A stretch of DNA of 64,000 nucleotides from an uncultured bacterium (GCA_963834265.1 CAWIAU010000001.1:135572-199571), one strand, 5' to 3'. Numbered from the stretch's first letter, positions 2,516-55,970 are shown. Translations and numbers: made by a program. The notes: generated by a model not told the origin, from the sequence alone.

Positions 2516-3187
2516 ATGAATATTGTAGATAGGTGCCTGGAAACTGTAGCGCCACATACCTGTTTTGTATGTGGCCTGGAGGGTGCGTTGCTTTGCAATT
2601 CCTGCTCTATGGAAGCCTTCCTACCTGTTCCTTCCCGTTGCTATCGTTGTCATGTAGCGACCACACAGAGCCGTGTTTGTGCGAATTGCTATCGGGTGGT
2701 GTCTTTGAGTTCCGTATGGGTAGCTACCCGTTATGCGGAGCATGCCAAAGAGCTGATCAGAAGGTTCAAATTTGAACGCGCCAAACAGGCTGCCGATATT
2801 GTGGCCCGCACCATAGATCAGAGATTACCAATACTTCCGGACAGTGTAGTGGTGTCTCATATTCCAACCGCAAATTCCCGTGTCCGTGTCCGGGGCTATG
2901 ATCAGGCGGAGCTCATTGCCCGCCGACTTTGCCGTATCAGGGGGTGGCAGTTTACTTCTCTGTTACTTCGTCGTGGGACGGGACGTCAGCTGGGAGCCAA
3001 GAGGAGTCAACGCTTCATGCAGTTGGAGAGTGCTTTCACGGTTCGTAATCAGAATCTGGTAACCGGAGCCTACGTTTTACTTATTGATGACGTGTTAACC
3101 ACCGGTGCAACCGTGGAAGCTGCTGCCCGATTGCTTAAAGATGCGGGGGCCAAAACTATCGAAGCTGCGGTTTTTGCTCAGCCGTAG
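2516..3187 (+). CDS. comF: ComF family protein (phosphoribosyltransferase-domain competence protein)
   Basis: 223 aa. N-terminal Cys-rich zinc-ribbon-like segment (CFVCG..CNSC..CYRC..CANC) and a C-terminal PRTase motif VLLIDDVLTTGATV. Confidence 0.8.
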   Translation: MNIVDRCLETVAPHTCFVCGLEGALLCNSCSMEAFLPVPSRCYRCHVATTQSRVCANCYRVVSLSSVWVATRYAEHAKELIRRFKFERAKQAADIVARTIDQRLPILPDSVVVSHIPTANSRVRVRGYDQAELIARRLCRIRGWQFTSLLLRRGTGRQLGAKRSQRFMQLESAFTVRNQNLVTGAYVLLIDDVLTTGATVEAAARLLKDAGAKTIEAAVFAQP

Positions 3188-3199
3188 AGTTGACAGACG

Positions 3200-3365
3200 T
3201 GGTGCACCCGGCAAGATTCGACCTTTGTCCGGCAAAACAAAAACTAGTTTTGCTAGAACAAAACCTTTCAGGGTGGCAGGCGGTCAATGTCCACCGGACA
3301 TTGTCGTTCGAATCTTGGACAACCAGACCAAATAAAATACCGATCACTGGGATCGGCGTATTATT
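3200..3365 (-). repeat. tRNA-linked structured module, copy A (3' of tRNA-Arg), ending in a 22-nt duplicate of the tRNA-Arg 3' end
   Basis: 3200-3221 is identical to 3366-3387 (TCGAATCTTGCCGGGTGCACCA on the minus strand). A 48-nt block is near-identical to 4482-4528 in the opposite orientation. A compensatory hairpin is present. Confidence 0.8.
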
Positions 3366-3442
3366 TGGTGCACCCGGCAAGATTCGAACCTGCGACCTTT
3401 GGCTCCGCAAGCCAACGCTCTATCCAGCTGAGCTACGGGTGC
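3366..3442 (-). tRNA. tRNA-Arg (anticodon GCG)
   Basis: 77-nt cloverleaf read by hand: GCACCCG-TA-GCTC-AGCTGGATA-GAGC-G-TTGGC-TTGCGGA-GCCAA-AGGTC-GCAGG-TTCGAAT-CTTGC-CGGGTGC-A-CCA. CCA is encoded. Confidence 0.85.
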
Positions 3443-3598: not shown

Positions 3599-4168
3599 TT
3601 AAAAGCGAATACGTTTCATCAGACGATCGACAGGATGCTCAATACGTTGCTCGTTCGGCAGATGTTCTGACAAAAATTCAATAATGTTTTGTTCCTGGTC
3701 GGGCGGGCAATAGATAGACAGATCGGGCATGAACCTTTGTAACGGCCATAGATTAACACTTGTCAGGACACCTTCATGGTGAATCGAGAAAGATATAAAC
3801 TGTGAATAAGAGTACAATTTACCACCCATGACAATTCCTTTTGAGTTTACAGTATATTGGAATTCACGGGGTTTTTTGCCCGCGAGGAATCCGAATAAAG
3901 CGGCTACTACCGCGATAGACCCAACCGATATCAGGTCGCCGTCGCTGAGCCAATATGTCAGACCGCAGACAGCCAGAGTAGCTGCAGCAAGCACAAGGTA
4001 CCATACGATGTCTTTTTGGTGCGAAACATATTCCGAAGCCGTCCAGCTGATTGGTTCCAATGTTGATGGTGGTGGTTCGCTCTCCTGATCCGGCACTGAC
4101 GGATCACTTTCTTTTCGAAATGACCACCCTGACTTTTCTTGTTGCTCTTTGTCCATATCCGGTAGCAA
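3599..4168 (-). CDS. Hypothetical membrane protein (two central TM helices)
   Basis: 189-aa ORF with an acidic/Pro-rich N-terminus, then WYLVLAAATLAVCGLTYWL and SIAVVAALFGFLAG hydrophobic segments. No family recognised. Confidence 0.55.
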   Translation of the reverse strand: MLPDMDKEQQEKSGWSFRKESDPSVPDQESEPPPSTLEPISWTASEYVSHQKDIVWYLVLAAATLAVCGLTYWLSDGDLISVGSIAVVAALFGFLAGKKPREFQYTVNSKGIVMGGKLYSYSQFISFSIHHEGVLTSVNLWPLQRFMPDLSIYCPPDQEQNIIEFLSEHLPNEQRIEHPVDRLMKRIRF

Positions 4169-4285: not shown

Positions 4286-4378
4286 GGAGAGGTACCCAAG
4301 TGGCTGAAGGGGTCGGTTTGCTAAATCGATAGGGGGGCGAAAGTCCCCGCGAGGGTTCGAATCCCTCTCTCTCCGCCA
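4286..4378 (+). tRNA. tRNA-Ser (anticodon GCU)
   Basis: 93-nt type II cloverleaf: GGAGAGG acceptor, anticodon stem TCGGT/ATCGA with loop TTGCTAA, long variable arm, T-arm GAGGG-TTCGAAT-CCCTC. CCA is encoded. Confidence 0.85.
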
Positions 4379-4582
4379 AATATAACGCCCCGCTTTATGT
4401 GGGGTTTTATATTTGGCTTGATCGAAATGAATTCGAACGACAACTGCCAGAGGCAGTTGGCCGCCCACCGCCCCGAAGGGCTTTGTTCTAGCAAAACTAA
4501 TTTTGTTTTGCCGGACAAAGGTCGAATCCCTCATTGTTACAAGTTATACTTTTGCGGGGCTAAGGCGAATCCCTCTCTCCTC
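4379..4582 (+). repeat. tRNA-linked structured module, copy B (3' of tRNA-Ser-GCU), with partial duplicates of the tRNA-Ser 3' end
   Basis: Same module order as copy A. TCGAATCCCTC at 4522-4532 and CGAATCCCTCTCTC at 4566-4579 match the tRNA-Ser T-loop/acceptor 3' strand. Confidence 0.75.
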
Positions 4583-13786: not shown

Positions 13787-14650
13787 ATGACAACCGAACG
13801 GATGGAAAATCTTTCCCCAAAACAAGAAATTGCAGATCATGTGATAAGTGAAATTGTCACGGCTAACAGTCAGATTGAGGCTTTTAAACCTGGCGGAAAT
13901 GAAATTTATGATCTTACTTCCAAAAGACTATTTACCAGGAGAGTAGCCAGCGACGAGGCAATTAGATTCACGGCATATAGCCGCACCGAGACCGAGGCAA
14001 GACTAATCGACGCTATAGTCGATGATAGATTAGCTCTCAGCAAGGTTCCGGGTATGATAATTCGAGCTAGCCGTGCCGGCCGCGAGGAATTACTTGCTGA
14101 GCAGGCTGAAGCAACTGTTGAAATAAAGGAAGTTGAAGCTACGCATCTGGAAAAGGCAGTAATGGCATTCAATGGTGCGATTGATCAAAAAATTATTAAA
14201 GCAACTGCTTTAGGAAAAAGCACAATTGAAGACGATAAACGCATGGACATTGTAAGCGCTAAACTGGGACTAACTGAATCAACAGAAATCGTTAAGTTCA
14301 ATAATGGTAAACATCGAAAAGCAACTATAACTTACAGCCCGGATGAACGAACTCCATTTGATCTCGGTAGTTTAAGTGAATTTGCCAGAGAAAGAATTGT
14401 ATCCGAATCATTAAATGGTTCAGAAGCATTAGATTTAGTTGTGCTTAAAGAAGAACTATTAATATTTCCAGGTTATGAAACGGGAACGAAGATAGAAAGA
14501 AGTTTGACTGTCGGCCTTAATCTAAACGAAGAAGACAGGCGGAAGTCAGCGAAGGCAAACATTTATCCTTTCGCTGTTCGAATGGATACCACTCCCGAAG
14601 ATTTAGAACGGATAACTGCTATAGTAACAGACCAGCAGCCAATTGAATAA
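13787..14650 (+). CDS. Hypothetical acidic protein (287 aa) in an AT-rich pocket
   Basis: The ORF is re-started at ATG 13787, which has RBS and promoter upstream. No family recognised. Confidence 0.55.
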   Translation: MTTERMENLSPKQEIADHVISEIVTANSQIEAFKPGGNEIYDLTSKRLFTRRVASDEAIRFTAYSRTETEARLIDAIVDDRLALSKVPGMIIRASRAGREELLAEQAEATVEIKEVEATHLEKAVMAFNGAIDQKIIKATALGKSTIEDDKRMDIVSAKLGLTESTEIVKFNNGKHRKATITYSPDERTPFDLGSLSEFARERIVSESLNGSEALDLVVLKEELLIFPGYETGTKIERSLTVGLNLNEEDRRKSAKANIYPFAVRMDTTPEDLERITAIVTDQQPIE

Positions 14651-14898
14651 ACTATTTTTAATATTATTTACCCACAGATTTGCATAATAACTTATTAGTT
14701 ATTTAGTATAGAGAGAGTTCTGAGTTTCACGTGAAATTTGGGACAACTAAACTCAAGGCTTTATCCGAAAGCTTTCAGTTCAACAGCCCATCCATATTGA
14801 ATTTATTTTGATATACGATCCTGACAGTGAATCAGAGTAATTCTTATAAACTTTTTGTTTCAAAATAAGCATAACTAAAATCCAACAGAGGTGCAACA

Positions 14899-14927
14899 TT
14901 GACAAAATAAATAAAATTTGCTATATT
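14899..14927 (+). promoter_or_regulatory. Sigma-70-type promoter (TTGACA-17-TATATT)
   Basis: -35 at 14899-14904 and -10 at 14922-14927. A GGAGA RBS precedes ATG 14949. Confidence 0.55.
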
Positions 14928-14948
14928 AGTATGGAGAAATGTAACTAA

Positions 14949-15902
14949 ATGCGAGACAAAGACCCATTACGCAGAAAAGTAACTGAACTCGCTAAGCCTC
15001 GCGTACGGGCAACAGGCAGAACTGCTCTGCGAACCGGAATGAAGATTGCCAGGGCAGCTCACGCTAAAGCACGCGAACTTGACGAACAATATGAATTATC
15101 CGACGGCGCTAAAATAAGGAAGCGGGAAGAACGAGAACGCAAAGGAGAAGCAGTAGCTCATAAGGCTCACGATGATCATAGAAGATTTTTAGAAAATCTT
15201 AGCGAAAGATCAGGCTTCAGCGTCGATAAACATGCACTCAGGAAACAAGCAACAGAACCGTGGACCACAATAGAATTAGGCCCGGGTGACAGACCTGTTG
15301 GTATGAACAGAAAATTTAGCGGAGATAGCAAATATATTGGTATTGATCCTCACATACATATGCCCAGAGAAGTAACAGAAGAAATTTTTGCCAGGCTAAA
15401 ATCCAGTCGTCCCGGAGAAAATATTAACTTATTGTCATTGGATAGAGGAGCCAAATCTATTGCAGGGGAGATCCCCGATGGATCGGCCGATGAGGTTTTT
15501 GCAGTTTATGTTTTTGATGATCCAAAAACTGATCGCGGGACGATAATAAGCGAAGCATATCGAATGCTAAAGCCGGGAGGGATATTCATTGTCTCGGACC
15601 ATAAATCACTGCTTTCGCGTCTTAAGCCTAAATATAGTTCACCTATTGACAGGCCGGAGTTTGAACGTAAAGGAGTAGCAGCTGATTTGGAGACAGCGGG
15701 GTTCGAGCTTCAGTTTTATAGAGAATATCCAGGTTCGTACTGGACGGCTCTTGAAGAAGGGTCTCCAGAGTTAGCAGAACTACAGGGAAAATATTTCGAT
15801 ATTGGGAATAAACTTGGATTGGTCTCTGAATATAATCAGCCACACATGGACATACTAGTCGCAATGAAGCCTCCTGAGCCTACATACACAGCCCGGGCTT
15901 AA
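14949..15902 (+). CDS. Protein with a basic helical N-terminal region and a class I SAM-dependent methyltransferase-like C-terminal domain
   Basis: 317 aa. Motif I-like IELGPGDRP, then YIGIDP, DEVFAVYVF and MLKPGGIFIV. Confidence 0.55.
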   Translation: MRDKDPLRRKVTELAKPRVRATGRTALRTGMKIARAAHAKARELDEQYELSDGAKIRKREERERKGEAVAHKAHDDHRRFLENLSERSGFSVDKHALRKQATEPWTTIELGPGDRPVGMNRKFSGDSKYIGIDPHIHMPREVTEEIFARLKSSRPGENINLLSLDRGAKSIAGEIPDGSADEVFAVYVFDDPKTDRGTIISEAYRMLKPGGIFIVSDHKSLLSRLKPKYSSPIDRPEFERKGVAADLETAGFELQFYREYPGSYWTALEEGSPELAELQGKYFDIGNKLGLVSEYNQPHMDILVAMKPPEPTYTARA

Positions 15903-16974
15903 TTTCTAAAGAATAAGGATCTGCCACAGGTTGGTCTTTGACGGCCATGAAGTAACCGAGGGTGGCGATCATGGCGGCGTTGTCTGTGCAGAGCCCGGGG
16001 TCTGTATAAGCTACTTTTATCGGAATGCGTTCTGATATCTGACGGCGAAGCTCGCTGTTGGCAGCTACTCCGCCGGCTACTACGAAACTTTGTGGGTGGA
16101 ACTCCTGAAATGCCAGAACTGCCTTGTCGACCACCGTTTCGATGGCTATTCGCTGAAAGCTGGCGGCAATATCCGCTTTTTGGGCCTCAGAGAGACGCTC
16201 AGATAGCTTATGGGAGGGAAAGTTGTAATCCTCACCTATTTGTTGCTGTGCCAGCCGCAGGACGGCAGTTTTAGGTCCTGAAAAGCTGAAGTCGTATTTG
16301 CCCGGTATCCGGGCTTTGGGAAGTTTGTGAGCAGTTGGATCTCCTTCCCGGGCTATTTTCTCGATGGCAGGACCACCCGGGTAGGGAAGACCAAGAATTT
16401 TGGCAACTTTATCGAAGGCTTCGCCGATGGCGTCGTCGCCGGTCTGCCCCAGCAAAGTGTAGTCGAAATGGTCTCGCAATAGCACTAGTTGGGTATGTCC
16501 CCCGCTAACTATTAGTGCCAAAACGGGAAAATCAGGTGCTGTAGCCGTCAGTTGGTAGCTGTCAGATAGGGTAGAAGTAGCATTAGTCAAAAAATTAGTA
16601 TAAACATGGGCTGTCACATGGTTTACGGCATAGAGGGGCTTCTGTTTGGTTATAGCCAGCGTCCGTGCCGTCATAACTCCGATCAGCAGGCTGCCGCCTA
16701 AACCAGGGCCATATGTTACGGCAATCCCGTCAATCTGATCCCACGGATCACTACTGTCAGGGAACTGTCCGCGGACTGGAGAGACCAGCGCTTTTTCGAC
16801 GACGGGCATTATAGCTTCCAGATGACTGCGGGCAGCAATCTCCGGCACAACTCCGCCGTAAGCAGTGTGTAAATCCATAGAACTGGCCACCACGTTGGAC
16901 AACAGCAGCTGCCCGTCCTCCACCACTGCCGCAGCTGTCTCATCGCAACTAGTCTCAATACCCAAAATTTTCAT
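15880..16974 (-). CDS. tsaD: tRNA N6-adenosine threonylcarbamoyltransferase
   Basis: 364 aa. MKILGIETSCDETAAAV..., HVTAHV and SGGHTQL are typical TsaD/Kae1 motifs. Confidence 0.93.
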   Translation of the reverse strand: MKILGIETSCDETAAAVVEDGQLLLSNVVASSMDLHTAYGGVVPEIAARSHLEAIMPVVEKALVSPVRGQFPDSSDPWDQIDGIAVTYGPGLGGSLLIGVMTARTLAITKQKPLYAVNHVTAHVYTNFLTNATSTLSDSYQLTATAPDFPVLALIVSGGHTQLVLLRDHFDYTLLGQTGDDAIGEAFDKVAKILGLPYPGGPAIEKIAREGDPTAHKLPKARIPGKYDFSFSGPKTAVLRLAQQQIGEDYNFPSHKLSERLSEAQKADIAASFQRIAIETVVDKAVLAFQEFHPQSFVVAGGVAANSELRRQISERIPIKVAYTDPGLCTDNAAMIATLGYFMAVKDQPVADPYSLEIKPGLCM

Positions 16975-18695: not shown

Positions 18696-18842
18696 CCAAT
18701 TAGCGATTCACTATGAACGATTTGCAAACCATTCACAACTGGCAATTAGCTTTTGAACCCCCATGGTTCATTGCTAAACGCTAGTTCATCGTTCATAGCC
18801 AATGGCAAATTAATAATCTAACTACAAAGGAGTTTGAAAAAC

Positions 18843-20492
18843 ATGGCAAAGAAAGTATTTTACGATGATGATGCCCGCAAGCGCGTACTGGGCGGGGCAG
18901 AGATTCTATATAACGCAGTCAAAACGACTATGGGTCCCAAAGGGCGCAACGTGGTGCTCAGTAAGAGCTACGGCAACCCTACTGTGACTCATGATGGTGT
19001 GACAGTAGCTAAAGGCGTGGACATCGCTGATGTCGACGACGAAACGCTAGGCTACAAAGTCGGTGCCGAACTTATCAAACAAGCTGCCAACAAGATGAAT
19101 GATGTTGCCGGAGATGGTACGACCACCGTAACTGTGCTGACCTATCACATTCTGAATGAGGCCAACAAGCTGATCGCTGCCGGCCACAACCCAATGCTTC
19201 TGCGAAAGGGCCTGGAACAGGCCGCCCACGACGTACTGACACAGCTCGGTACTCTGACTGAAGACATCAAAGGTGACAAAAAGCGCGTGGCCGAAGTAGC
19301 CACTATCTCTGCCGGTGACCCTGCCATCGGTGCTCTTATCGCTGATGTCATCGACAAAGTTGGCAAAGACGGCGTTGTGACTGTCGAAGAAGGCCAGGGA
19401 CTGTCCCTGGAAAGTGAAGTGGTTGAGGGTTTCACGATGGACCGCGGCTTCATCAGCCCGTACATGGTGACTGATACTGCCCGCATGGAAGCTGTCATCG
19501 ACAAGCCGGCCATCGTAATTACTGACAAGAAGATCAGCAGCGCGCAGGATTTCCTGCCTTTGCTAGAAAAATTAGCCCAGACCGGCAAAAAAGACCTGTT
19601 GATCATTGCTGAAGATGTGGAAGGCGAAGTGCTTGGTGTATTGGTGCTCAACAAATTGAAAGGTGTGCTGAACGCCGTTGCTGTCAAGGCTCCGGCATTT
19701 GGTGATCGCCGTAAAGATACACTCGAAGATATTGCCACACTAACTGGTGGGCAGGTTGTGACCGAAGACCGCGGTATGACATTCGAGAACGTTGATCTTG
19801 ACGTGGTAGGTTCGGCCCGTAAGGTGATTGTAACCAAGGACGAAACGACAATTATCGAGGGTGCCGGCCCGGCAGCAGCCGTCAAAGCCCGCATAGCTCA
19901 GATCAACACTCAGGCCAAAGCCGCCAGCTCATCCTACGACAAAGAGAATCTCCAAAAGCGCCGCGCCGCCTTGTCCGGCAAAGTCGCCGTCATCAAAGTC
20001 GGTGGCGCTACCGAAACCGAAATAGAAGAGAAAAAATTCCGTGTTGATGACGCCGTAGCTGCTGTCAAAGCTGCTCTGGACGAAGGTATCGTATCGGGTG
20101 GTGGCGTTACACTGATTAATCTGGCATCGCTTATCAAGGCAGATGGCAACGATTCAGCAGCAGCCGGCGCATCCATACTGCGCAAGGCACTCGGCCAACC
20201 ATTCAGAATCCTGTTGGAAAATTCCGGTCTTAACCCGGATGAATGGCTGCCGCAGATAAAAAAGGCCAAACCCGGCCAAGGTGTAGATGTTAATAATCCG
20301 ACCAAACTAGTAGATCTCAAATCGGCCGGTGTTATTGACCCGGCCCGTGTTACCAAGGAAGCTATCCAGAATGCGGCCAGCATCGCCGGTACCGCCATCA
20401 CAATGGGCGCGCTAGTCGTAGAAGTCCCAGAGCCAAAATCTGCAGCTCCCGACATGTCGGGCATGGGCGGCGGTGGCATGATGGGCATGTAG
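18843..20492 (+). CDS. groEL: Chaperonin GroEL
   Basis: MAKKVFYDDDARKRVLGG...AGDGTTTVTVL..., with a C-terminal GGM-type tail. The start is moved to ATG 18843, which has an AAAGGAG RBS. Confidence 0.96.
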   Translation: MAKKVFYDDDARKRVLGGAEILYNAVKTTMGPKGRNVVLSKSYGNPTVTHDGVTVAKGVDIADVDDETLGYKVGAELIKQAANKMNDVAGDGTTTVTVLTYHILNEANKLIAAGHNPMLLRKGLEQAAHDVLTQLGTLTEDIKGDKKRVAEVATISAGDPAIGALIADVIDKVGKDGVVTVEEGQGLSLESEVVEGFTMDRGFISPYMVTDTARMEAVIDKPAIVITDKKISSAQDFLPLLEKLAQTGKKDLLIIAEDVEGEVLGVLVLNKLKGVLNAVAVKAPAFGDRRKDTLEDIATLTGGQVVTEDRGMTFENVDLDVVGSARKVIVTKDETTIIEGAGPAAAVKARIAQINTQAKAASSSYDKENLQKRRAALSGKVAVIKVGGATETEIEEKKFRVDDAVAAVKAALDEGIVSGGGVTLINLASLIKADGNDSAAAGASILRKALGQPFRILLENSGLNPDEWLPQIKKAKPGQGVDVNNPTKLVDLKSAGVIDPARVTKEAIQNAASIAGTAITMGALVVEVPEPKSAAPDMSGMGGGGMMGM

Positions 20493-20496
20493 CATA

Positions 20497-20523
20497 ATGA
20501 GAGGAGGTGATTCCTCCTCTCAT
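20497..20523 (+). terminator. groEL terminator hairpin
   Basis: 11-bp perfect stem atgagaggagg / cctcctctcat with loop tgatt. A second hairpin aaaacgactc..gagtcgtttt follows about 70 nt downstream. Confidence 0.6.
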
Positions 20524-20696
20524 CGTTGCCGGGTGCCGAAATGAATTCGCCACTTGGACTGCTCTCCTCCCAAAAATGAGAAAACGACTCCCGAAATAAA
20601 TTCGAAGAGTCGTTTTGCATACATTTGCAACTTGCTTTCTATATTTAATATAAAGCAAACAAATGTAAGTGCTCAAAAACAAGAATTTAAATACGT

Positions 20697-21455
20697 CTAT
20701 GCTTGGGGTCCAGTAACCTGTTGTAGGGTTGCCATAGCTTGTTCCAAGAGAGCTGCATACTCTTCAGGAGTATCGTATACTGTTCCTGTCCGCCTCTCAT
20801 TGTGTCCAGTTACTAATCCATCATGGACAACAGGAGTAACCGCAAAGCTTGCGACCTCGAAATATGGGTCGGCATTAGAGGGTGGAAGCCCTGAGGCTTT
20901 GGCTATTTTTCGGTTTGGCGATTCATCTTGCGTAGCGGGACCGGTTACTATAACATCACTCATTCCGCTAAGTGTAGTTTTATCGCCATATTGCTCAGAA
21001 CTATAAAAAGCCAGCTCAATACATGGAACAACTGAAGTGACCATATCGGTCCTTAGTCCAAGGAATGGCTTTATTTCCAGCAGCTGATCGTTGGGGTCGG
21101 TAACAGAGACTGGGACACCGACGGTAGATTCGTCTACCCCCTTGGTTAGATGGCCGCCATGCGCGCCTAAAAGTCTTCCAGTAGTGTGTACACGGAAAAC
21201 TGTTCCGTTTCTTTCTACAAATCCACTGGGAAATTCATGAAATCCGCGTTCCCTTAAATCTTGGTGTTCATCCAGAAGCTGTTGAAAAGCACCAGTAAGT
21301 TGTTCCCTTGCTTGTATAGCACTTTCTACGCGAGGGTCGCGGTTGCCATTCCTCGGGTCACTAACTTGATTGGCTCCCGCCACAGCGACTGCAGCTAATG
21401 GCGTAGTAATATCGGATTGTCCACCGCTTGGTTTTTCTATTCCTTGGCCTGGCAT
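20697..21455 (-). CDS. Hypothetical protein (about 252 aa)
   Basis: ORF on the minus strand. The start is moved to the ATG at 21455, which has a GGAAG RBS 7 nt upstream. No family recognised. Confidence 0.55.
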   Translation of the reverse strand: MPGQGIEKPSGGQSDITTPLAAVAVAGANQVSDPRNGNRDPRVESAIQAREQLTGAFQQLLDEHQDLRERGFHEFPSGFVERNGTVFRVHTTGRLLGAHGGHLTKGVDESTVGVPVSVTDPNDQLLEIKPFLGLRTDMVTSVVPCIELAFYSSEQYGDKTTLSGMSDVIVTGPATQDESPNRKIAKASGLPPSNADPYFEVASFAVTPVVHDGLVTGHNERRTGTVYDTPEEYAALLEQAMATLQQVTGPQA

Positions 21456-21613
21456 TAGTGTCTTCCTATTTAACGTCAAAAATAGTATCATACTATTATA
21501 ATAATGTCAACCCAACTGATGTCTTTTTTATAATTATCTCTTGTTTGGTGGAGATAATCGTGTTATTATCTCCAGTAGATTAGTGATAAACATAAAAACT
21601 AAGGAATAAATAC

Positions 21614-35496: not shown

Positions 35497-35844
35497 AAAG
35501 ATAGTTTAACAGCTATGAGCTTAAGGTTAAAAATTCATTTCGGCGCGCCTGGGTAGGCGCTTTCCCAAGATACTTTTGTAAGCAGCAACAAAAGTATCCA
35601 AAAACGCTGCAGCGTTGCCGAGAACACGACTGAGTCCAGATACCAGACTGGCCCAGTGATACGAAAGACTCCCGCTGGTCGATCCTGTTCTTAATGTTTT
35701 ATAAGGAATAGAACAAGACTGATTTCGTATCAGCTATTCGAACCAGCCTGATTGGACCCAATCGGTTCCGGCAAGTGCTGGGGGATTCATGGAGTTCCTA
35801 TTTTTAATGAGAAGACCAGGAGTGTCCAGGAATGAGAATTCTAA
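35497..35844 (+). repeat. Structured intergenic repeat family, copy 1 (variant core)
   Basis: Head hairpin gatacttttg/caaaagtatc at 35569-35598. The tail CTGATTGGACCCAATCGGTTCCGGCAAGTGCTGG matches the complement of 55200-55233 at about 30/34 positions. It fills the whole intergenic space. Confidence 0.7.
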
Positions 35845-36375
35845 TCATCTATTAGGTTTTTTGTTTGCTATAACGGCAACGAGCGCAACGATATTTGCCA
35901 CAGCAAGTATGCTATAGCCAGCATAAATTTGAGTAACACCTTTGCTGACCTCATCGTTAGCAGGAGTCTGACTAAATATATTTGAAGGGGGCAACTCGGG
36001 TAATGATTCGTTTGTATAACCCGAAATATCTTTATAATGCTGTTTATTGGCTTGATCTATCTGTTGCGCATCTTTAAGGCCAAGCAGAGACACCAGTATT
36101 AGGATGACTGCGCCCGCCGATACTAATAGTTTTCCTAATGTGTGATTTTTGGCAAACATAGCAATGCTTACCGCAGTTAGAATCGCTAAGATAAACAACC
36201 AATTTTCTGCTTTATAAGTAAACGTTTCTTGAGCCAATATATAATTAAAAGCTGCGCTTGAAGTAACGATGTAAACAGCTATAAAGTTCACAAGAGCGAC
36301 AACAAATAAAATTCTATAGGTCAGGCTTTTCTTGCCAGGAAAAACTTTGGTTGTCTGAGGTGTTGTTACTGGCAT
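35845..36375 (-). CDS. Hypothetical integral membrane protein (176 aa, 4 TM)
   Basis: ORF with four hydrophobic helices. No family recognised. Confidence 0.55.
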   Translation of the reverse strand: MPVTTPQTTKVFPGKKSLTYRILFVVALVNFIAVYIVTSSAAFNYILAQETFTYKAENWLFILAILTAVSIAMFAKNHTLGKLLVSAGAVILILVSLLGLKDAQQIDQANKQHYKDISGYTNESLPELPPSNIFSQTPANDEVSKGVTQIYAGYSILAVANIVALVAVIANKKPNR

Positions 36376-36507
36376 AGTAGTATTTATCCTTTAGTGTAAA
36401 GTTAGTAACAGATAAGAGTATTCTATCAGTTAAAAGCTTAAGGTAAAAAATGAAAAGTTATCTTGCCTATGCTTTCAGCTTTCAGCCTTAAGCCTTAAAC
36501 TGTAGCT

Positions 36508-47025: not shown

Positions 47026-47294
47026 ATTTCAATTGCCTTGCTTCACAAGCCACTCGAGCTACTTTCTTGTATTGACTAGAAAGTAGGCAAAGAAGCAACA
47101 GGCTTGAAAAAGGTCTTTATGGTCTCATTGTCGAAAAGCAAAATGCTCGGGTAACTCACCAATTTTTAACTATTTTCATAGAGAAATTGGCTTAAACATC
47201 CCCTCCTCGCTGAGTATTGTGCTCTCGACACTCGTCCATCAGGAGCTTTTCAGGCCTGGTGAAACTCCATGGAAAAATTACTAAAGATAATTTT
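47026..47294 (+). repeat. Structured intergenic repeat family, copy 2
   Basis: Head ATTTCAATTGCC.., hairpin ctactttct/agaaagtag at 47059-47086. The tail CCATGGAAAAATTACTAAAGATAATTTT (47267-47294) is identical to the complement of 55282-55309. Confidence 0.8.
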
Positions 47295-48222
47295 ACTTCT
47301 TTATTACAGATTCAGATCTAGTCTGATTAATCTTATAGTTTAGAAATTTAATAAGTAACTGACTGGATTTATTTACTTTGCCAGAACCTGAACCACCGCG
47401 TTTTTCTGTCGTTCCTTTAAGGTCCATGTAATACGCATCTAAATCCATGTATGTACTATCTAGAAAAGCTGTACGTTTTCTTTCCATGAATAGCGGCCCT
47501 ATTTCTGATAATGCTAACGGTTCACCAGTTTCGTTTCCCTCAGGGGATTTTTTATAAATTAGGGGTTTTTTCTCTTCTCTTGGCTCCGCAATATCTAACC
47601 CCTCAAGTCTATCAAAAGGGCCTACGTGACCACGAAATTCGTGAGGAGGCTGTCCATGGCTTATTTTTACTCTTTCAAGTTCTCTGTTTATATTAGTTAC
47701 GTCCCGGGCCAATATTTGCATTCGATCCCTGTCTCCAGATGCCGTTGAACCCGATAATTCGTTCCAATATTCGCGAGTCCGTTCGTAGTTTTGCCTCAGG
47801 TCCTCCGATTCATCCCAGACACGTTGGGTAAAAACTCTATATGCGCTTGCTTTACACATATTCTTCCATATTGTTGTCGCCATCTTAGCGGAGTAGCTAG
47901 CGTCTTGCCCTGGACTTATTCCTGCAATAAATTCTTTTAGTGAATTACGATCTAATGTGCCGAGACTCCCTTCGGTTTCCGGGTCGTAGGTCATTAATAC
48001 TTCCGCCTCAGCATCTTTTGGTTCCACTGCATAGCCCTTAATGCCTGCTTTAGCTAGTTCGCTAACAAGCATCAATGGGTCAACTCTTTGTCCATCGGTA
48101 TCAATAAAATTTGCCATGGGAATAACAACATCGCCGCCTCTTATTTGATCCGCCGGAAGAGTTAATTGGTGTGATTCTTGCGCATTATCTATCATATAAA
48201 TACATTTTATCACAAAATACAT
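47293..48222 (-). CDS. Hypothetical protein (309 aa) in an AT-rich pocket
   Basis: Long ORF with no family recognised. Its 3' end abuts the tail of repeat copy 2. The start codon is uncertain (ATG 48222 or 48195). Confidence 0.55.
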   Translation of the reverse strand: MYFVIKCIYMIDNAQESHQLTLPADQIRGGDVVIPMANFIDTDGQRVDPLMLVSELAKAGIKGYAVEPKDAEAEVLMTYDPETEGSLGTLDRNSLKEFIAGISPGQDASYSAKMATTIWKNMCKASAYRVFTQRVWDESEDLRQNYERTREYWNELSGSTASGDRDRMQILARDVTNINRELERVKISHGQPPHEFRGHVGPFDRLEGLDIAEPREEKKPLIYKKSPEGNETGEPLALSEIGPLFMERKRTAFLDSTYMDLDAYYMDLKGTTEKRGGSGSGKVNKSSQLLIKFLNYKINQTRSESVIKK

Positions 48223-54149: not shown

Positions 54150-54430
54150 AATACAGTTTCGTTTCGACCCTGAAGGTCGCCCCAGCTTCCTTTTTGTGCC
54201 AACAAAAAGGAAGCGAAAAAATGGCAGGCAACGAAAAGATTCTTTATGATCTCATTGTCAAAGCCAACAATGTCCTGGACGACTCCTTCCAGTCGGCCTC
54301 ATTCTTTATTAATTCTCATAGAATGAACTCGGCTGATTCCAGAACCATTAATTGTAGTTTTGACACTCGCTCATCAGGAAGCTTTTCGGGCCTGAACGGG
54401 ATTCGTGGACTAAAGGATTTTATTATAATG
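54150..54430 (+). repeat. Structured intergenic repeat family, copy 3 (left inverted repeat of the nuclease cassette)
   Basis: Hairpin cttccttttt/aaaaaggaag at 54186-54213. The blocks CTTTATGATCTCATTGTC and GACACTCGCTCATCAGGAAGCTTTTCGGGCCTG are homologous to copies 2 and 4. It contains an 88-aa ORF (54194-54460) that I do not trust as coding. Confidence 0.7.
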
Positions 54431-54475
54431 ATGGAGATAGTATTATTAGGGGAAATCTAATCTGGAGTATTAAAC

Positions 54476-55171
54476 GTGGCTACAGACAGACAAATGACTG
54501 AACTGAAAGAGCGGATGAAAACTTATAAGCGCAAATACTTGCGTAAAGAATTTAATAGAGTTGATGAATCGGCAACTAGAATCATGGTTAATAGTTTTTT
54601 GACGGACGTGTTGGGCTACAAAGAACTTGAAGAAATTAAGACAGAGTTCAGAATTCGTGGGGAATATGCGGATTATGTCGTACAGCTGAAACGTAAAAAA
54701 CACTTTGTTATCGAAGTTAAGTCAATTCAGCTTGATCTAAATGATAAACACCTACGGCAAAGCCTAAATTATGCTGCTAATGAAGGAATTGACTGGATTG
54801 TCCTATTGAACGGACGGCAAGTTGAACTCTATCGAGTTAATTTTGGTAAACCAATCAGCAGTACATTGATTTACTCGATTGATTTAATGGATAAAGATGC
54901 TTTCAAAAAATGCCCAGATCAACTTTGGTATCTTACTAAAATCGCAGTGATTAAGGGTGAGTTAGAGGAATTTTGGAAACGTTCTAACGCCTTGCAGCTA
55001 GAAAATTTAGCAAAACTAATCTACTCCGAGGAAATAGTGCGAAAAATTAGAAATGACCTCAAAAATAAAACCGGAATTTATTTCCAGCTAGAAGATGTAT
55101 CAGCTGGTCTCTACGATGTAATAACTAGAAAAGTAGTTTTCTTAAAGCCTAAACTTCGTTCAAAGAAATAA
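54476..55171 (+). CDS. Type I restriction enzyme HsdR N-terminal domain-like (PD-(D/E)xK nuclease fold) stand-alone protein
   Basis: 231 aa with a GTG start and GGAG RBS. DESATRIMVNSFLTDVLGY ... ADYVV ... VIEVKS ... QSLNYA ... WIVLLNGRQVELYRV matches the HSDR_N pattern. Confidence 0.7.
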   Translation: MATDRQMTELKERMKTYKRKYLRKEFNRVDESATRIMVNSFLTDVLGYKELEEIKTEFRIRGEYADYVVQLKRKKHFVIEVKSIQLDLNDKHLRQSLNYAANEGIDWIVLLNGRQVELYRVNFGKPISSTLIYSIDLMDKDAFKKCPDQLWYLTKIAVIKGELEEFWKRSNALQLENLAKLIYSEEIVRKIRNDLKNKTGIYFQLEDVSAGLYDVITRKVVFLKPKLRSKK

Positions 55172-55560
55172 AATACTGAAGCTTCACGGGCTTTAACTAG
55201 CATTTGCCGGAACCGATTGGGTTCAAACAGTATGGCTTGAATCTTTAATCTCCAACAACTAATTTCTCCAATAATTAATTCAAAATTATCTTTAGTAATT
55301 TTTCCATGGATTGCCTCAGGCCTGAAGAGTTCCTGATGGACGAGTGCTAAAGGCACAATTATTAGCGAGATGCTGTTTGCAACTTGCCTTCCTTCAAGAT
55401 AATCAAGGCAAGCTAAGTTCATCGAGCATTGTGCTCTTTGGCAATGAAACCATAACGAACTTTTCAAGCCTGCGGCTCTTTTGCATACTTTTGCAGCTGC
55501 AGGTAAAAGTATGTCGAGTGGACTGCGAAGCAGGTCAATTGAAATACTTAATTAGAGAAA
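55172..55560 (-). repeat. Structured intergenic repeat family, copy 4 (right inverted repeat of the nuclease cassette)
   Basis: Read on the minus strand: head ATTTCAATTGACC, hairpin catactttt/aaaagtatg at 55484-55513, tail CCATGGAAAAATTACTAAAGATAATTTT, then ..CCCAATCGGTTCCGGCAA. Confidence 0.8.
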
Positions 55561-55562
55561 GT

Positions 55563-55970
55563 CTATTTCTTTTTGGCTGGGGCTTTTTTGGTTGCAGGTT
55601 TCTTAGCAGCAGGCTTTTTAACTGCAGGTTTCTTAGCAGCAGGCTTATCCTTGGCGGCTGGCTTTTTCTTGGCTGAGCTGGCAATCCTGGCAGCGCCAGC
55701 AGCCACGCTTACACCAGCTGCTATTTTGGCAGCCCGGGACAGTTGTTTCTTCTTGCGGGCGGCTTTGTTTTTATGAATCACATTCTTTTTGACTGCTTTG
55801 TCGATGGCGCTCTGAGCTTTTTTAAGCTCGGATGCTGTCTTTTTACCGCCTTTTGCAGCGGAGTGCAGGGCCTTTACCGCTGTTTTGAGATTGCGCCTGG
55901 TTTTGGCGTTGCGGGTTGTCGCCTTGAGAGCTGTCCGGACACGTTTTTTAGCTGATTTGATAATTGGCAT
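55563..55970 (-). CDS. rpsT: 30S ribosomal protein S20 with a Lys/Ala/Pro-rich C-terminal extension
   Basis: The N-terminal ~85 aa (MPIIKSAKKRVRTALKATTRNAKTRRNLKTAVKAL...) is S20. The C-terminal ~50 aa is AKKKPAAKDKPAAKKPAVKKPAAKKPATKKAPAKKK. Confidence 0.9.
   Translation of the reverse strand: MPIIKSAKKRVRTALKATTRNAKTRRNLKTAVKALHSAAKGGKKTASELKKAQSAIDKAVKKNVIHKNKAARKKKQLSRAAKIAAGVSVAAGAARIASSAKKKPAAKDKPAAKKPAVKKPAAKKPATKKAPAKKK

Follow-up and report, generated by a model that had tools for sequence, protein, structure and literature searches.

Repetitive extragenic palindromes of the REP, BIME and REPIN types are mobilised by RAYT, a Y1 HUH transposase. A REP is an imperfect palindrome of ~20-40 nt with a conserved GT(A/G)G head, a REPIN spans ~100 nt, and REPs are species-specific. 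The attC sites range from 57 to 141 nt and carry RYYYAAC/GTTRRRY boxes (R''/L''-L'/R') in an array next to intI/attI. Here we analysed a 64,000-nt stretch of DNA (the window) from a genome of Candidatus Saccharibacteria (TM7, Saccharimonadales), which holds four copies of a structured, non-coding repeat. The repeat has a conserved head with two hairpins (hp1 and hp2) and a pseudoknot, a long imperfect hairpin of variable sequence (the rod) and a tail. We tentatively favour, at somewhat below even probability, the reading that the four repeats are non-autonomous mobile structured repeats of the REP/REPIN or MITE (miniature inverted-repeat transposable element) kind, recognised in single-stranded form via the head.

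Like REPs and REPINs, the family is extragenic, multi-copy and non-coding, its hairpins carry compensatory changes, its units occur singly or as inverted doublets, often just past genes or in convergent intergenic spacers, and the element itself contains no transposase. Extragenic copies are numerous in both arrangements (4-5 in the 64 kb of the window, at least 7 in a 16.7-kb contig and ~12 inverted pairs), and the hp2 stem ends in GTA(G/T) at its 3' base, recalling the GTAG of REPs. The family differs from REP/REPIN in its 230-390-nt unit, which is built of three structural modules plus a pseudoknot and is not a short palindrome, and in a head core that recurs across phyla and in phage contigs. 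No repeat-flanked RAYT was found in the 3.5 Mb searched with the TnpA proteins of IS200 and IS608.

Architecture of the element

The four copies named in a preliminary description of the window were found at the positions and on the strands claimed there, and all four fold alike, with minimum free energy z-scores of -4.2 to -4.6. The unit (230-390 nt) comprises head, rod and tail. The head runs in the order TTTCR, short GC-rich hairpin hp1, spacer of ~7 nt, hp2 (a hairpin of 9-13 bp, consensus cTACTTTTg...cAAAAGTAg) and (G/C)CAAAA(G/A) linker; the rod that follows is an imperfect hairpin of 160-180 nt with ~55 base pairs and variable sequence. Heads were scored with two covariance models, R1, which includes the window copies and models the head rather than full-length units, and R2, which was built solely from 89 metagenome heads and holds no window sequence. 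The copies and their parts are as follows.

Copy 1 (rod type B): 35538..35844, + strand; R1 81 bits, R2 61 bits, fold z -4.57
Copy 1, parts: TTTC 35538-35541; hp1 35545-35560; hp2 35569-35598; CAAAAA linker 35599-35604; rod ~35607-35783
Copy 1, pseudoknot: loop GCAGC 35582-35586 with GCTGC 35606-35610
Copy 1, terminator-like hairpin with T run: 35781-35808
Copy 2 (rod type A): 47027..47294, + strand; R1 89 bits, R2 51 bits, z -4.19
Copy 2, parts: hp1 47037-47049; hp2 47059-47086; rod 47099-47258; tail 47259-47294
Copy 3 (type A): 54157..54475, + strand; R1 32 bits, R2 33 bits, z -4.64
Copy 3, parts: hp1 54165-54179; hp2 54185-54214; rod 54225-54394
Copy 3, pseudoknot: TGCCA 54197-54201 with TGGCA 54222-54226
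Copy 4 (type A): 55172..55544, - strand; R1 99 bits, R2 76 bits, z -4.28
Copy 4, parts: hp1 55533-55523; hp2 55513-55484; rod 55476-55313; tail identical to that of copy 2, 55310-55282
Copy 4, pseudoknot: CCTGCAGCT 55503-55495 with AGCCGCAGG 55477-55469

Copies 2-4 form one repeat family, as had been proposed: an nhmmer profile of these copies recovers them with E values of 1e-75 to 1e-91. Copies 2 and 4 are 73% identical across 277 nt, and their identical tail, earlier put at 28 nt, is a perfect match of 29 nt (47266-47294 / 55282-55310). Copy 3, described before as a more diverged homolog, is the most diverged type-A copy and has the lowest model scores of the four. The claim that copy 1 shares head and tail block with copy 4 and has a different core holds for the sequence, yet the core fold has the same architecture. 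The sequence likeness of copies 1 and 4 consists of two pieces, the hairpin head (77% over 43 nt) and CCCAATCGGTTCCGGCAA, which lies inside a 44-nt match of 84% (35736-35779 / 55199-55242); the CCCAATCGGTTCCGGCAA block is part of the type-B 3' arm in copy 1 and stands as an isolated fragment behind copy 4. The conserved blocks TTATGGTCTCATTG and CACTCGTCCATCAGGA, noted earlier, proved to be the two sides of one internal loop of the rod with its flanking pairs. Features beyond that earlier account are hp1 upstream of hp2, the core as a single long rod hairpin, the pseudoknot and a weak fifth copy.

Copy 2 starts 18 nt past the polA stop codon (47008), and its tail extends to the stop codon of the convergent open reading frame (ORF) 47293-48222. 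Copy 3 starts 13 nt past the holA stop codon (54143), and its tail reaches the start of an ORF with an HSDR_N_2 domain. Copy 4 starts 18 nt past the rpsT stop codon (55563) and has the type-B 3' arm fragment behind it (55242-55199). The genes polA, holA and rpsT are all co-oriented with the copy that starts 13-18 nt after their stops (three of the four window copies), and copies 3 and 4 form a tail-to-tail inverted pair around the HSDR_N_2 ORF. The rpsT gene itself (55563-55970, - strand) encodes an S20 protein of 135 amino acids (aa) with a Lys/Ala/Pro-rich C-terminal extension (KPAAKK-like repeats) beyond the Pfam S20 match, which ends at residue 81.

The fifth site is as follows.

Possible fifth, degenerate copy: 20599..20694, - strand; R2 15.5 bits, E 0.036 with filters off; weak and not counted as a member

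In this candidate, ATGCAAAACG and a 10-bp hairpin come after a stem resembling hp2 (ACATTTG/CAAATGT); further on lies a second AATTCATTTCGGC start, 13 nt of which are identical to the start of copy 1. The spacer that holds it (20493-20696, between the convergent groEL, 18834-20492 +, and ORF 20697-21491, -) folds very stably (z -7.7) and also carries an 11-bp GC-rich terminator-like hairpin. The spacer is probably a decayed family member.

Covariation and pseudoknot

Among copies 2-4, 27 of 68 predicted pairs are changed on both sides and still paired, a count equalled in 0/500 shuffles, with slid controls giving 2-5. The type-B rod of copy 1 is homologous to a rod from another genus (locus L033; labels beginning with L denote DNA stretches compared with the window), and 13 of their 46 pairs are compensatory. 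The position-conserved hairpin with a covarying stem, reported before from the four window copies, corresponds to hp2, and its covariation holds in 86 distinct family members. Over the 86 distinct heads, 95.1% of the cells of hp1 and hp2 are paired, compared with 68.9% in shuffles, and the covariation score is 0.458 compared with 0.101 (0/500 shuffles reach it). The variable hp2 pairs are strictly Watson-Crick (0-1 G-U among ~340 cells), and the sequences of several motifs in loops and internal loops stay conserved although the stems vary.

The hp2 loop is complementary to the stretch directly after the CAAAA linker, which gives an H-type pseudoknot; loop/partner examples from across the family are GCTGTCC/GGACAGC, CTTGAAC/GTTCAAG and CCAGCAGC/GCTGCTGG. 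In 92 distinct sequences with 12-nt loops, this register pairs in 50% of cells compared with 11-31% for other registers, shuffles reach at most 38% (0/500), and the four core pairs occur as 3-4 Watson-Crick types each. Because a pseudoknot is meaningless in duplex DNA, these results imply that a single-stranded form, either RNA or single-stranded DNA, is under selection. In gut and phage members the pseudoknot is followed by a short hairpin, hp3 (xxGAAAC-loop-GTTTCxx, with one covarying base). The Saccharibacteria rod begins at the position of hp3 (CTTGAAAA...) and therefore looks like an expanded hp3. A closing helix pairing 5' TTTCAA with TTGAAA after hp2 was dropped as a candidate, the TTGAAAC of gut and phage members belonging to their own hairpin hp3.

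Coding potential and known RNA families

That the element is unlikely to be coding, as first suggested, was supported by six-frame translation, in which similar peptides appear solely in shifting frames and stops occur in all frames. The short similar peptides (LYGLIVEKQNAR / LYDLIVKANNVL / RYGFIAKEHNAR; LVHQELFRP; PNRFRQ(M/V)L) would be the trace to expect if the copies were decayed remnants of a small protein-coding gene. We consider this highly improbable: the peptides lie in different frames within and between copies with stops in every frame, and the substitutions are paired across hairpin arms, not placed at third codon positions. In addition, the longest ORF in the elements (118 aa) has no homologue except itself among 5.8 billion proteins and no Pfam match.

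The earlier impression that the element matches none of RNase P, SRP, tmRNA, 6S or the riboswitches was borne out by a scan of the window against Rfam 15 at the gathering threshold, which returned 4 tRNAs only. In E-value mode, Rfam 15 gave chance-level matches far below gathering scores for copies 1, 2 and 3/4 and for an inverted pair from a phage contig, and the small ribozyme, HEARO/IS605-orfB and STAXI families of Rfam did not reach the gathering threshold. No relevant paper was found by sequence string or keywords. As these searches suggest, the family is not described in the sources searched (Rfam, annotated phages and plasmids, literature).

Distribution across bacteria and phages

Among 80 species representatives, nearly all of them labelled Saccharibacteria or Patescibacteria, none has a polA product more than 68-69% identical to that of the window genome, and gene order in the polA region is well kept across these 80 related loci. 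This set of 80 Saccharibacteria-type loci served as the related-genome set, with tblastn used for ORF synteny. R1 found members in 8 of the 80 loci, weak matches in L071, L033 and L027 included. A copy lies directly after polA in L062; in L042 an inverted pair lies directly after holA and after rpsT and encloses no gene; and L035, L033, L007, L027 and L071 have one copy each. All of these copies that were folded (all but the weak one of L071) show the head followed by a long rod of unrelated sequence. Even copies at the same sites in other genera (holA/rpsT in L042, polA in L062) have rods unrelated to those of the window. Rod type A occurs in copies 2, 3 and 4 and in L089, and type B in copy 1, in L033 and in the fragment behind copy 4. 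Since rods are more alike within a genome than at the same site between genomes, the element appears to spread, or to be homogenised, within genomes. In relatives such as L001 the sites are empty and the holA-rpsT gap is ~150 nt. The recurrent sites are spacers between convergent genes, which in compact genomes tolerate insertions.

The copies are not confined to the window or its relatives, and members were also found in viral and metagenome contigs. An exact DNA pattern from the A-type rod (CACTCGYYCATCAGGA...) gave 0 matches in the genome and metagenome collections, the rod sequences being too lineage-specific for an exact-pattern search. A loose hp2 pattern matched viral contigs widely and noisily; tightened by adding the loop motif AGC, which biases the sampled loops, it returned 9 viral and at least 120 metagenome stretches. 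R1 confirmed 89 heads among the listed metagenome stretches (E < 0.01, local GC 23-69%), many of them extra copies not selected by the pattern. Such unselected partner copies confirm the family. R2 in turn scored the window copies at 76, 61, 51 and 33 bits.

One viral-labelled contig of 16.7 kb (IMGVR_UViG_3300007961_000281 = Ga0079305_1002383; L212 / L177 / L234 / L254) carries at least 7 copies. The head in L254 is identical to that in L234, so the two likely overlap, and L254 has ABC-transporter and lipoprotein-type genes (read from translations); the contig may come from a bacterium and not from a virus. In L156, a phage contig that encodes portal and capsid proteins, an inverted pair folds into one giant hairpin (z -8.7). 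Units are most often arranged as tail-to-tail inverted pairs of 350-580 nt, of which about a dozen were found, and six elements of ~460 nt are 79% identical inside and differ in their flanks. Among annotated phages and plasmids no carrier was found, and three unannotated human-gut 'Bacteriophage sp.' records match the head. The 84 proteins neighbouring members fall into 111 Pfam families, none seen more than twice; the presence among them of sporulation, type IX secretion system (T9SS)-sorting and phage terminase proteins points to hosts in several different phyla.

Evidence for and against a mobile repeat

Several traits point to a mobile repeat, namely that the element is non-coding and multi-copy, that copies are more alike within a genome than between genomes, that solo units, inverted dimers and fragments all occur, that no gene is linked to it, that it reaches phages and distant hosts, and that its variable hp2 pairs are strictly Watson-Crick. 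From these traits we infer both its mobility and the action of an enzyme upon it. The element would multiply within a genome and move between hosts, with phages as one likely vehicle, and its head may be what a trans-acting enzyme recognises when it acts on a single-stranded copy. Insertions would persist only at harmless places, namely shortly behind stop codons and in the gaps of convergent gene pairs. Copies that recombined with one another, or took up inserted DNA, may have brought in the HSDR_N_2 ORF and the 309-aa and 176-aa ORFs beside or between the window copies, and the same events could have left part of a rod of one type after a full copy of another.

A number of observations weigh against this reading. 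No transposase, integrase or reverse transcriptase was found in the 64-kb window by Pfam, none of the three was consistently beside members, and no transposase was enriched among the 84 neighbouring proteins. A tblastn search of 3.5 Mb of sequence with the TnpA proteins of IS200 and IS608 found one IS200-like Y1 tnpA, in L224 (= L331) at 2624-3115 (+), 59% identical to IS200 TnpA. It lies ~650 nt from a single member (3771-3843, -) and is unflanked. No direct repeat that would mark a target-site duplication was read at the ends of copies 3/4, L156 and L260, and copies 1 and 2 of the window are solo units with no inverted partner. The conservation of the hp2 core, linker, pseudoknot register and loop motifs across phyla is unusual for selfish repeats and fits a functional RNA equally well. 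Two asymmetries are RNA-like: on the forward strand hp1 has 59 G-U pairs to 25 A-C mismatches, and 50 of the 92 sequences have A-C as the middle pair of the pseudoknot, a combination that reads as G-U on the opposite strand.

These two asymmetries point to opposite strands, and the strand indicators as a whole conflict, the rods being neutral, hp1 favouring the forward strand and the pseudoknot the reverse strand. The rods fold equally on both strands and contain few G-U pairs; together with the strictly Watson-Crick hp2, this fits a DNA hairpin or a need for both strands.

The same data bear on a functional family of structured non-coding RNA, either an independent small RNA or a processed 3'-untranslated-region RNA, which we regard as the main rival, less probable than the mobile repeat but a serious possibility. 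Under this explanation, a conserved protein or RNA would bind to the pseudoknotted head, the rod would serve as a structural spacer, and paralogous copies would also reside in phages and variable regions, for example in defence, anti-defence or RNA metabolism. The covarying pseudoknot, the loop and internal-loop motifs kept while stems vary, the forward-strand G-U excess of hp1 and a head conserved over GC contents of 23-69% all accord with an RNA. So do the location of 49 of the 77 heads with a called upstream gene downstream of a co-oriented gene (three of the four window copies lying 13-18 nt past a stop), and, at copy 1, a promoter-like match directly upstream and the terminator-like T-run hairpin after the rod. 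However, hp2 is practically without G-U pairs, the rods lack strand bias, and the strand hints of hp1 and the pseudoknot disagree. Promoter- and terminator-like matches in three scanned regions were no commoner than in shuffles, and no consistent promoters emerged. The element is associated with no gene, and a density as high as 7 or more copies in 16.7 kb, along with tail-to-tail dimers and truncated fragments, is what one sees in repeats and not in RNA genes.

Position just past genes could also mean that the element is a cis-acting 3'-end module of the upstream gene, acting as a terminator, an insulator between convergent genes or an exonuclease block that stabilises the mRNA, a role that transcribed REP and ERIC elements play. 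Heads lie 13-38 nt past co-oriented stops (polA, holA and rpsT in the window; L035, L062, L042 and L089), many copies sit between convergent genes, and the G-U bias of hp1 is on the forward strand. Nevertheless, we judge such a module improbable. A consensus scan for intrinsic terminators (GC-rich stem-loop plus U-tract) found none at hp1, hp2 or the rods, no U-tract follows hp1, hp2 or most rods, and the sole terminator-like match near any element is the T-run hairpin directly behind the rod of copy 1. Moreover, copy 1 is upstream of a divergent gene, the L156 inverted pair sits between co-directional genes, and the upstream gene is oppositely oriented for 28 of the 77 heads. The same gene ends lack the element in most relatives, and cross-phylum sequence conservation is not expected of terminators.

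Returning to the mobile-repeat reading, the family resembles MITEs and other structured repeats (Correia/nemis, ERIC, RUP, bcr1, Rickettsia palindromic elements) as short, non-autonomous elements with long intergenic hairpins, possible co-transcription with neighbours and build-up in variable regions. It differs in that no short terminal inverted repeat with target duplication could be defined, the 'inverted repeat' being the complex head of ~110 nt, in that solo units with their own internal rod are common, and in a far wider host range. Nor is an autonomous parent insertion sequence known, and the ORFs between inverted heads are unrelated (HSDR_N_2, a 525-aa ORF, phage terS).

Like the ends of IS200/IS605 elements and palindrome-associated transposable elements (PATEs), the family has DNA hairpins that would be recognised single-stranded, pairing of a hairpin-adjacent segment with a nearby site, and a wide presence in bacteria and phages. 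Unlike the family, IS200/IS605 carry their left- and right-end hairpins on the same strand, not inverted, their pairing is of 4 nt, and tnpA adjoins one of the ~110-120 family copies. In the 3.5 Mb searched, that single IS200-like gene, not flanked by copies, was the one Y1 transposase gene found near a member. Retron msr-msd regions differ in that no reverse transcriptase occurs in the window or among neighbours, orphan copies are multiple, and a closing helix of a1/a2 type was inconsistent across copies when read. Read on the reverse strand, hp1 with (C)GAAA(T/C) after it recalls CRISPR repeats, a likeness noted by eye; the window has no array, and general Pfam scans gave no cas gene, repeat databases not having been searched.

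Accessory genes beside the copies

Three convergent accessory ORFs abut the tails of the window copies, as described before.

54476..55171, + strand: HSDR_N_2 (PD-(D/E)xK-type) ORF, 231 aa; Pfam PF13588, E 6e-7
47293..48222, - strand: 309-aa accessory ORF; no Pfam or PADLOC match; stop codon overlaps the tail end of copy 2
35845..36375, - strand: 176-aa accessory ORF; no Pfam or PADLOC match; 3' end abuts the tail of copy 1

The HSDR_N_2 ORF is missing at the holA/rpsT site of related genomes, and the 309-aa ORF has no tblastn match in the 80 related loci. Compared with related genomes, copy 1 and the 176-aa ORF are inserted DNA. On either side of this block stands one unit of a promoter-like 38-nt direct repeat (35498-35534 / 36414-36451, 79% identical); the second unit (36414-36451) gives a sigma-70-like promoter match, as if the promoter region of a 201-aa gene had been duplicated upon insertion of the block.

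The HSDR_N_2 protein resembles a 'type IV restriction endonuclease', and its homologues, more than 1,400 with 70-88% identity, occupy varied contexts, the named sources being Saccharibacteria. Its neighbourhood differs in every genome examined and often contains defence-type genes (SLFN-like helicase, SIR2-DUF87, Fic). That it is more conserved than polA (68% at most) while its neighbourhoods differ suggests a horizontally moving gene. Linkage of the element to HSDR_N_2 as its cargo was rejected: eight other contexts of homologues (L081-L088) lack the element, and L089 is the sole exception. In L089 a type-A fragment lies upstream of the HSDR_N gene, as copy 3 does, and a full unit just past its stop is followed by a type-A arm fragment.

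These ORFs bear on a further explanation, in which the element is an attC- or dif-like recombination site for gene-cassette capture and a site-specific recombinase, by cutting and rejoining the folded rod or head, places accessory genes between copies. Accessory ORFs between or beside copies occur in the window, in L251 (a 525-aa ORF between inverted heads) and in L089, and hybrids of a complete unit followed by the 3' arm of the other rod type would suit such a site. As in attC, the family has imperfect palindromes whose fold is kept while the sequence varies, a single-strand function and places near the 3' ends of accessory ORFs. This explanation too seems to us unlikely. No recombinase was found in the window by Pfam or enriched among neighbours, most inverted pairs enclose no gene, and the genes enclosed are unrelated (phage terS is another), HSDR_N homologues being usually without the element. 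Unlike attC, the family is dispersed, with no integrase (Pfam, window), attI or cassette array, and most copies have no cassette. The rods of 140-180 nt exceed the attC range, no RYYYAAC/GTTRRRY boxes or R-box consensus were read at the rod bases, and the head with hp2 and pseudoknot has no attC counterpart.

The preliminary description had proposed a novel non-coding RNA, 3'-untranslated-region element or mobilisation/recombination site that travels with accessory gene cassettes. A non-coding structured element with statistically supported covariation stands. The travelling with cassettes does not hold in general, given unrelated housekeeping, phage and accessory neighbours and HSDR_N homologues mostly without the element. 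Copies acting as recombination or insertion hotspots, and copies and genes accumulating together in permissive spacers, fit the accessory ORFs about equally.

Other features of the window

Three further regions were recorded. At 1-1614 lies a tandem array of 3-4 diverged paralogues of ~440-480 nt each (ORFs 249-689, 723-1142 and 1159-1614), whose products are small proteins resembling type IV secretion system pilins (PF18895 / TrbC-VirB2). An inverted repeat of ~107-127 nt (3215-3341 / 4403-4528; 72% over 107 nt, with a 28-nt perfect core) brackets tRNA-Arg (3366-3442, -), ORF 3599-4168 (-) and tRNA-Ser (4286-4378, +), and the segment between the repeats could be invertible or duplicated. Finally, GC content dips at 14000-16000 (0.41 compared with ~0.47), a stretch that contains a 304-aa ORF lacking annotation and a 317-aa ORF with a methyltransferase domain (14949-15902).

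Significance

The family belongs among structured extragenic repeats of a known general kind, with a real chance of being a new functional class. One such possibility, which we hold to be less probable than the mobile repeat, is a cross-phylum class of structured single-stranded nucleic acid, RNA or DNA, whose head docks a conserved protein in a cellular or conflict role, from Saccharibacteria to gut Firmicutes and phages. The docking site would then be the invariant head, made up of hp2 TACTTTT/AAAAGTA, the CAAAA linker, the loop-to-downstream pairing and the GAAAC/GTTTC hairpin or rod.

Should the family prove as undescribed as these searches indicate, it would be among the more widespread structured non-coding elements missing from catalogues. 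The head model is directly usable for annotating it. Even the ultra-small, streamlined genomes of Saccharibacteria carry the element, a costly load of 250-400 nt of non-coding DNA for each copy, and gut and environmental bacteria and phage contigs have it as well. It is a marker of horizontal traffic among very different hosts, and an enzyme able to recognise a pseudoknotted hairpin likely uses it as substrate. It also offers an explanation for assembly breaks and for the variable hotspots that lodge accessory genes, here a PD-(D/E)xK nuclease-like gene.

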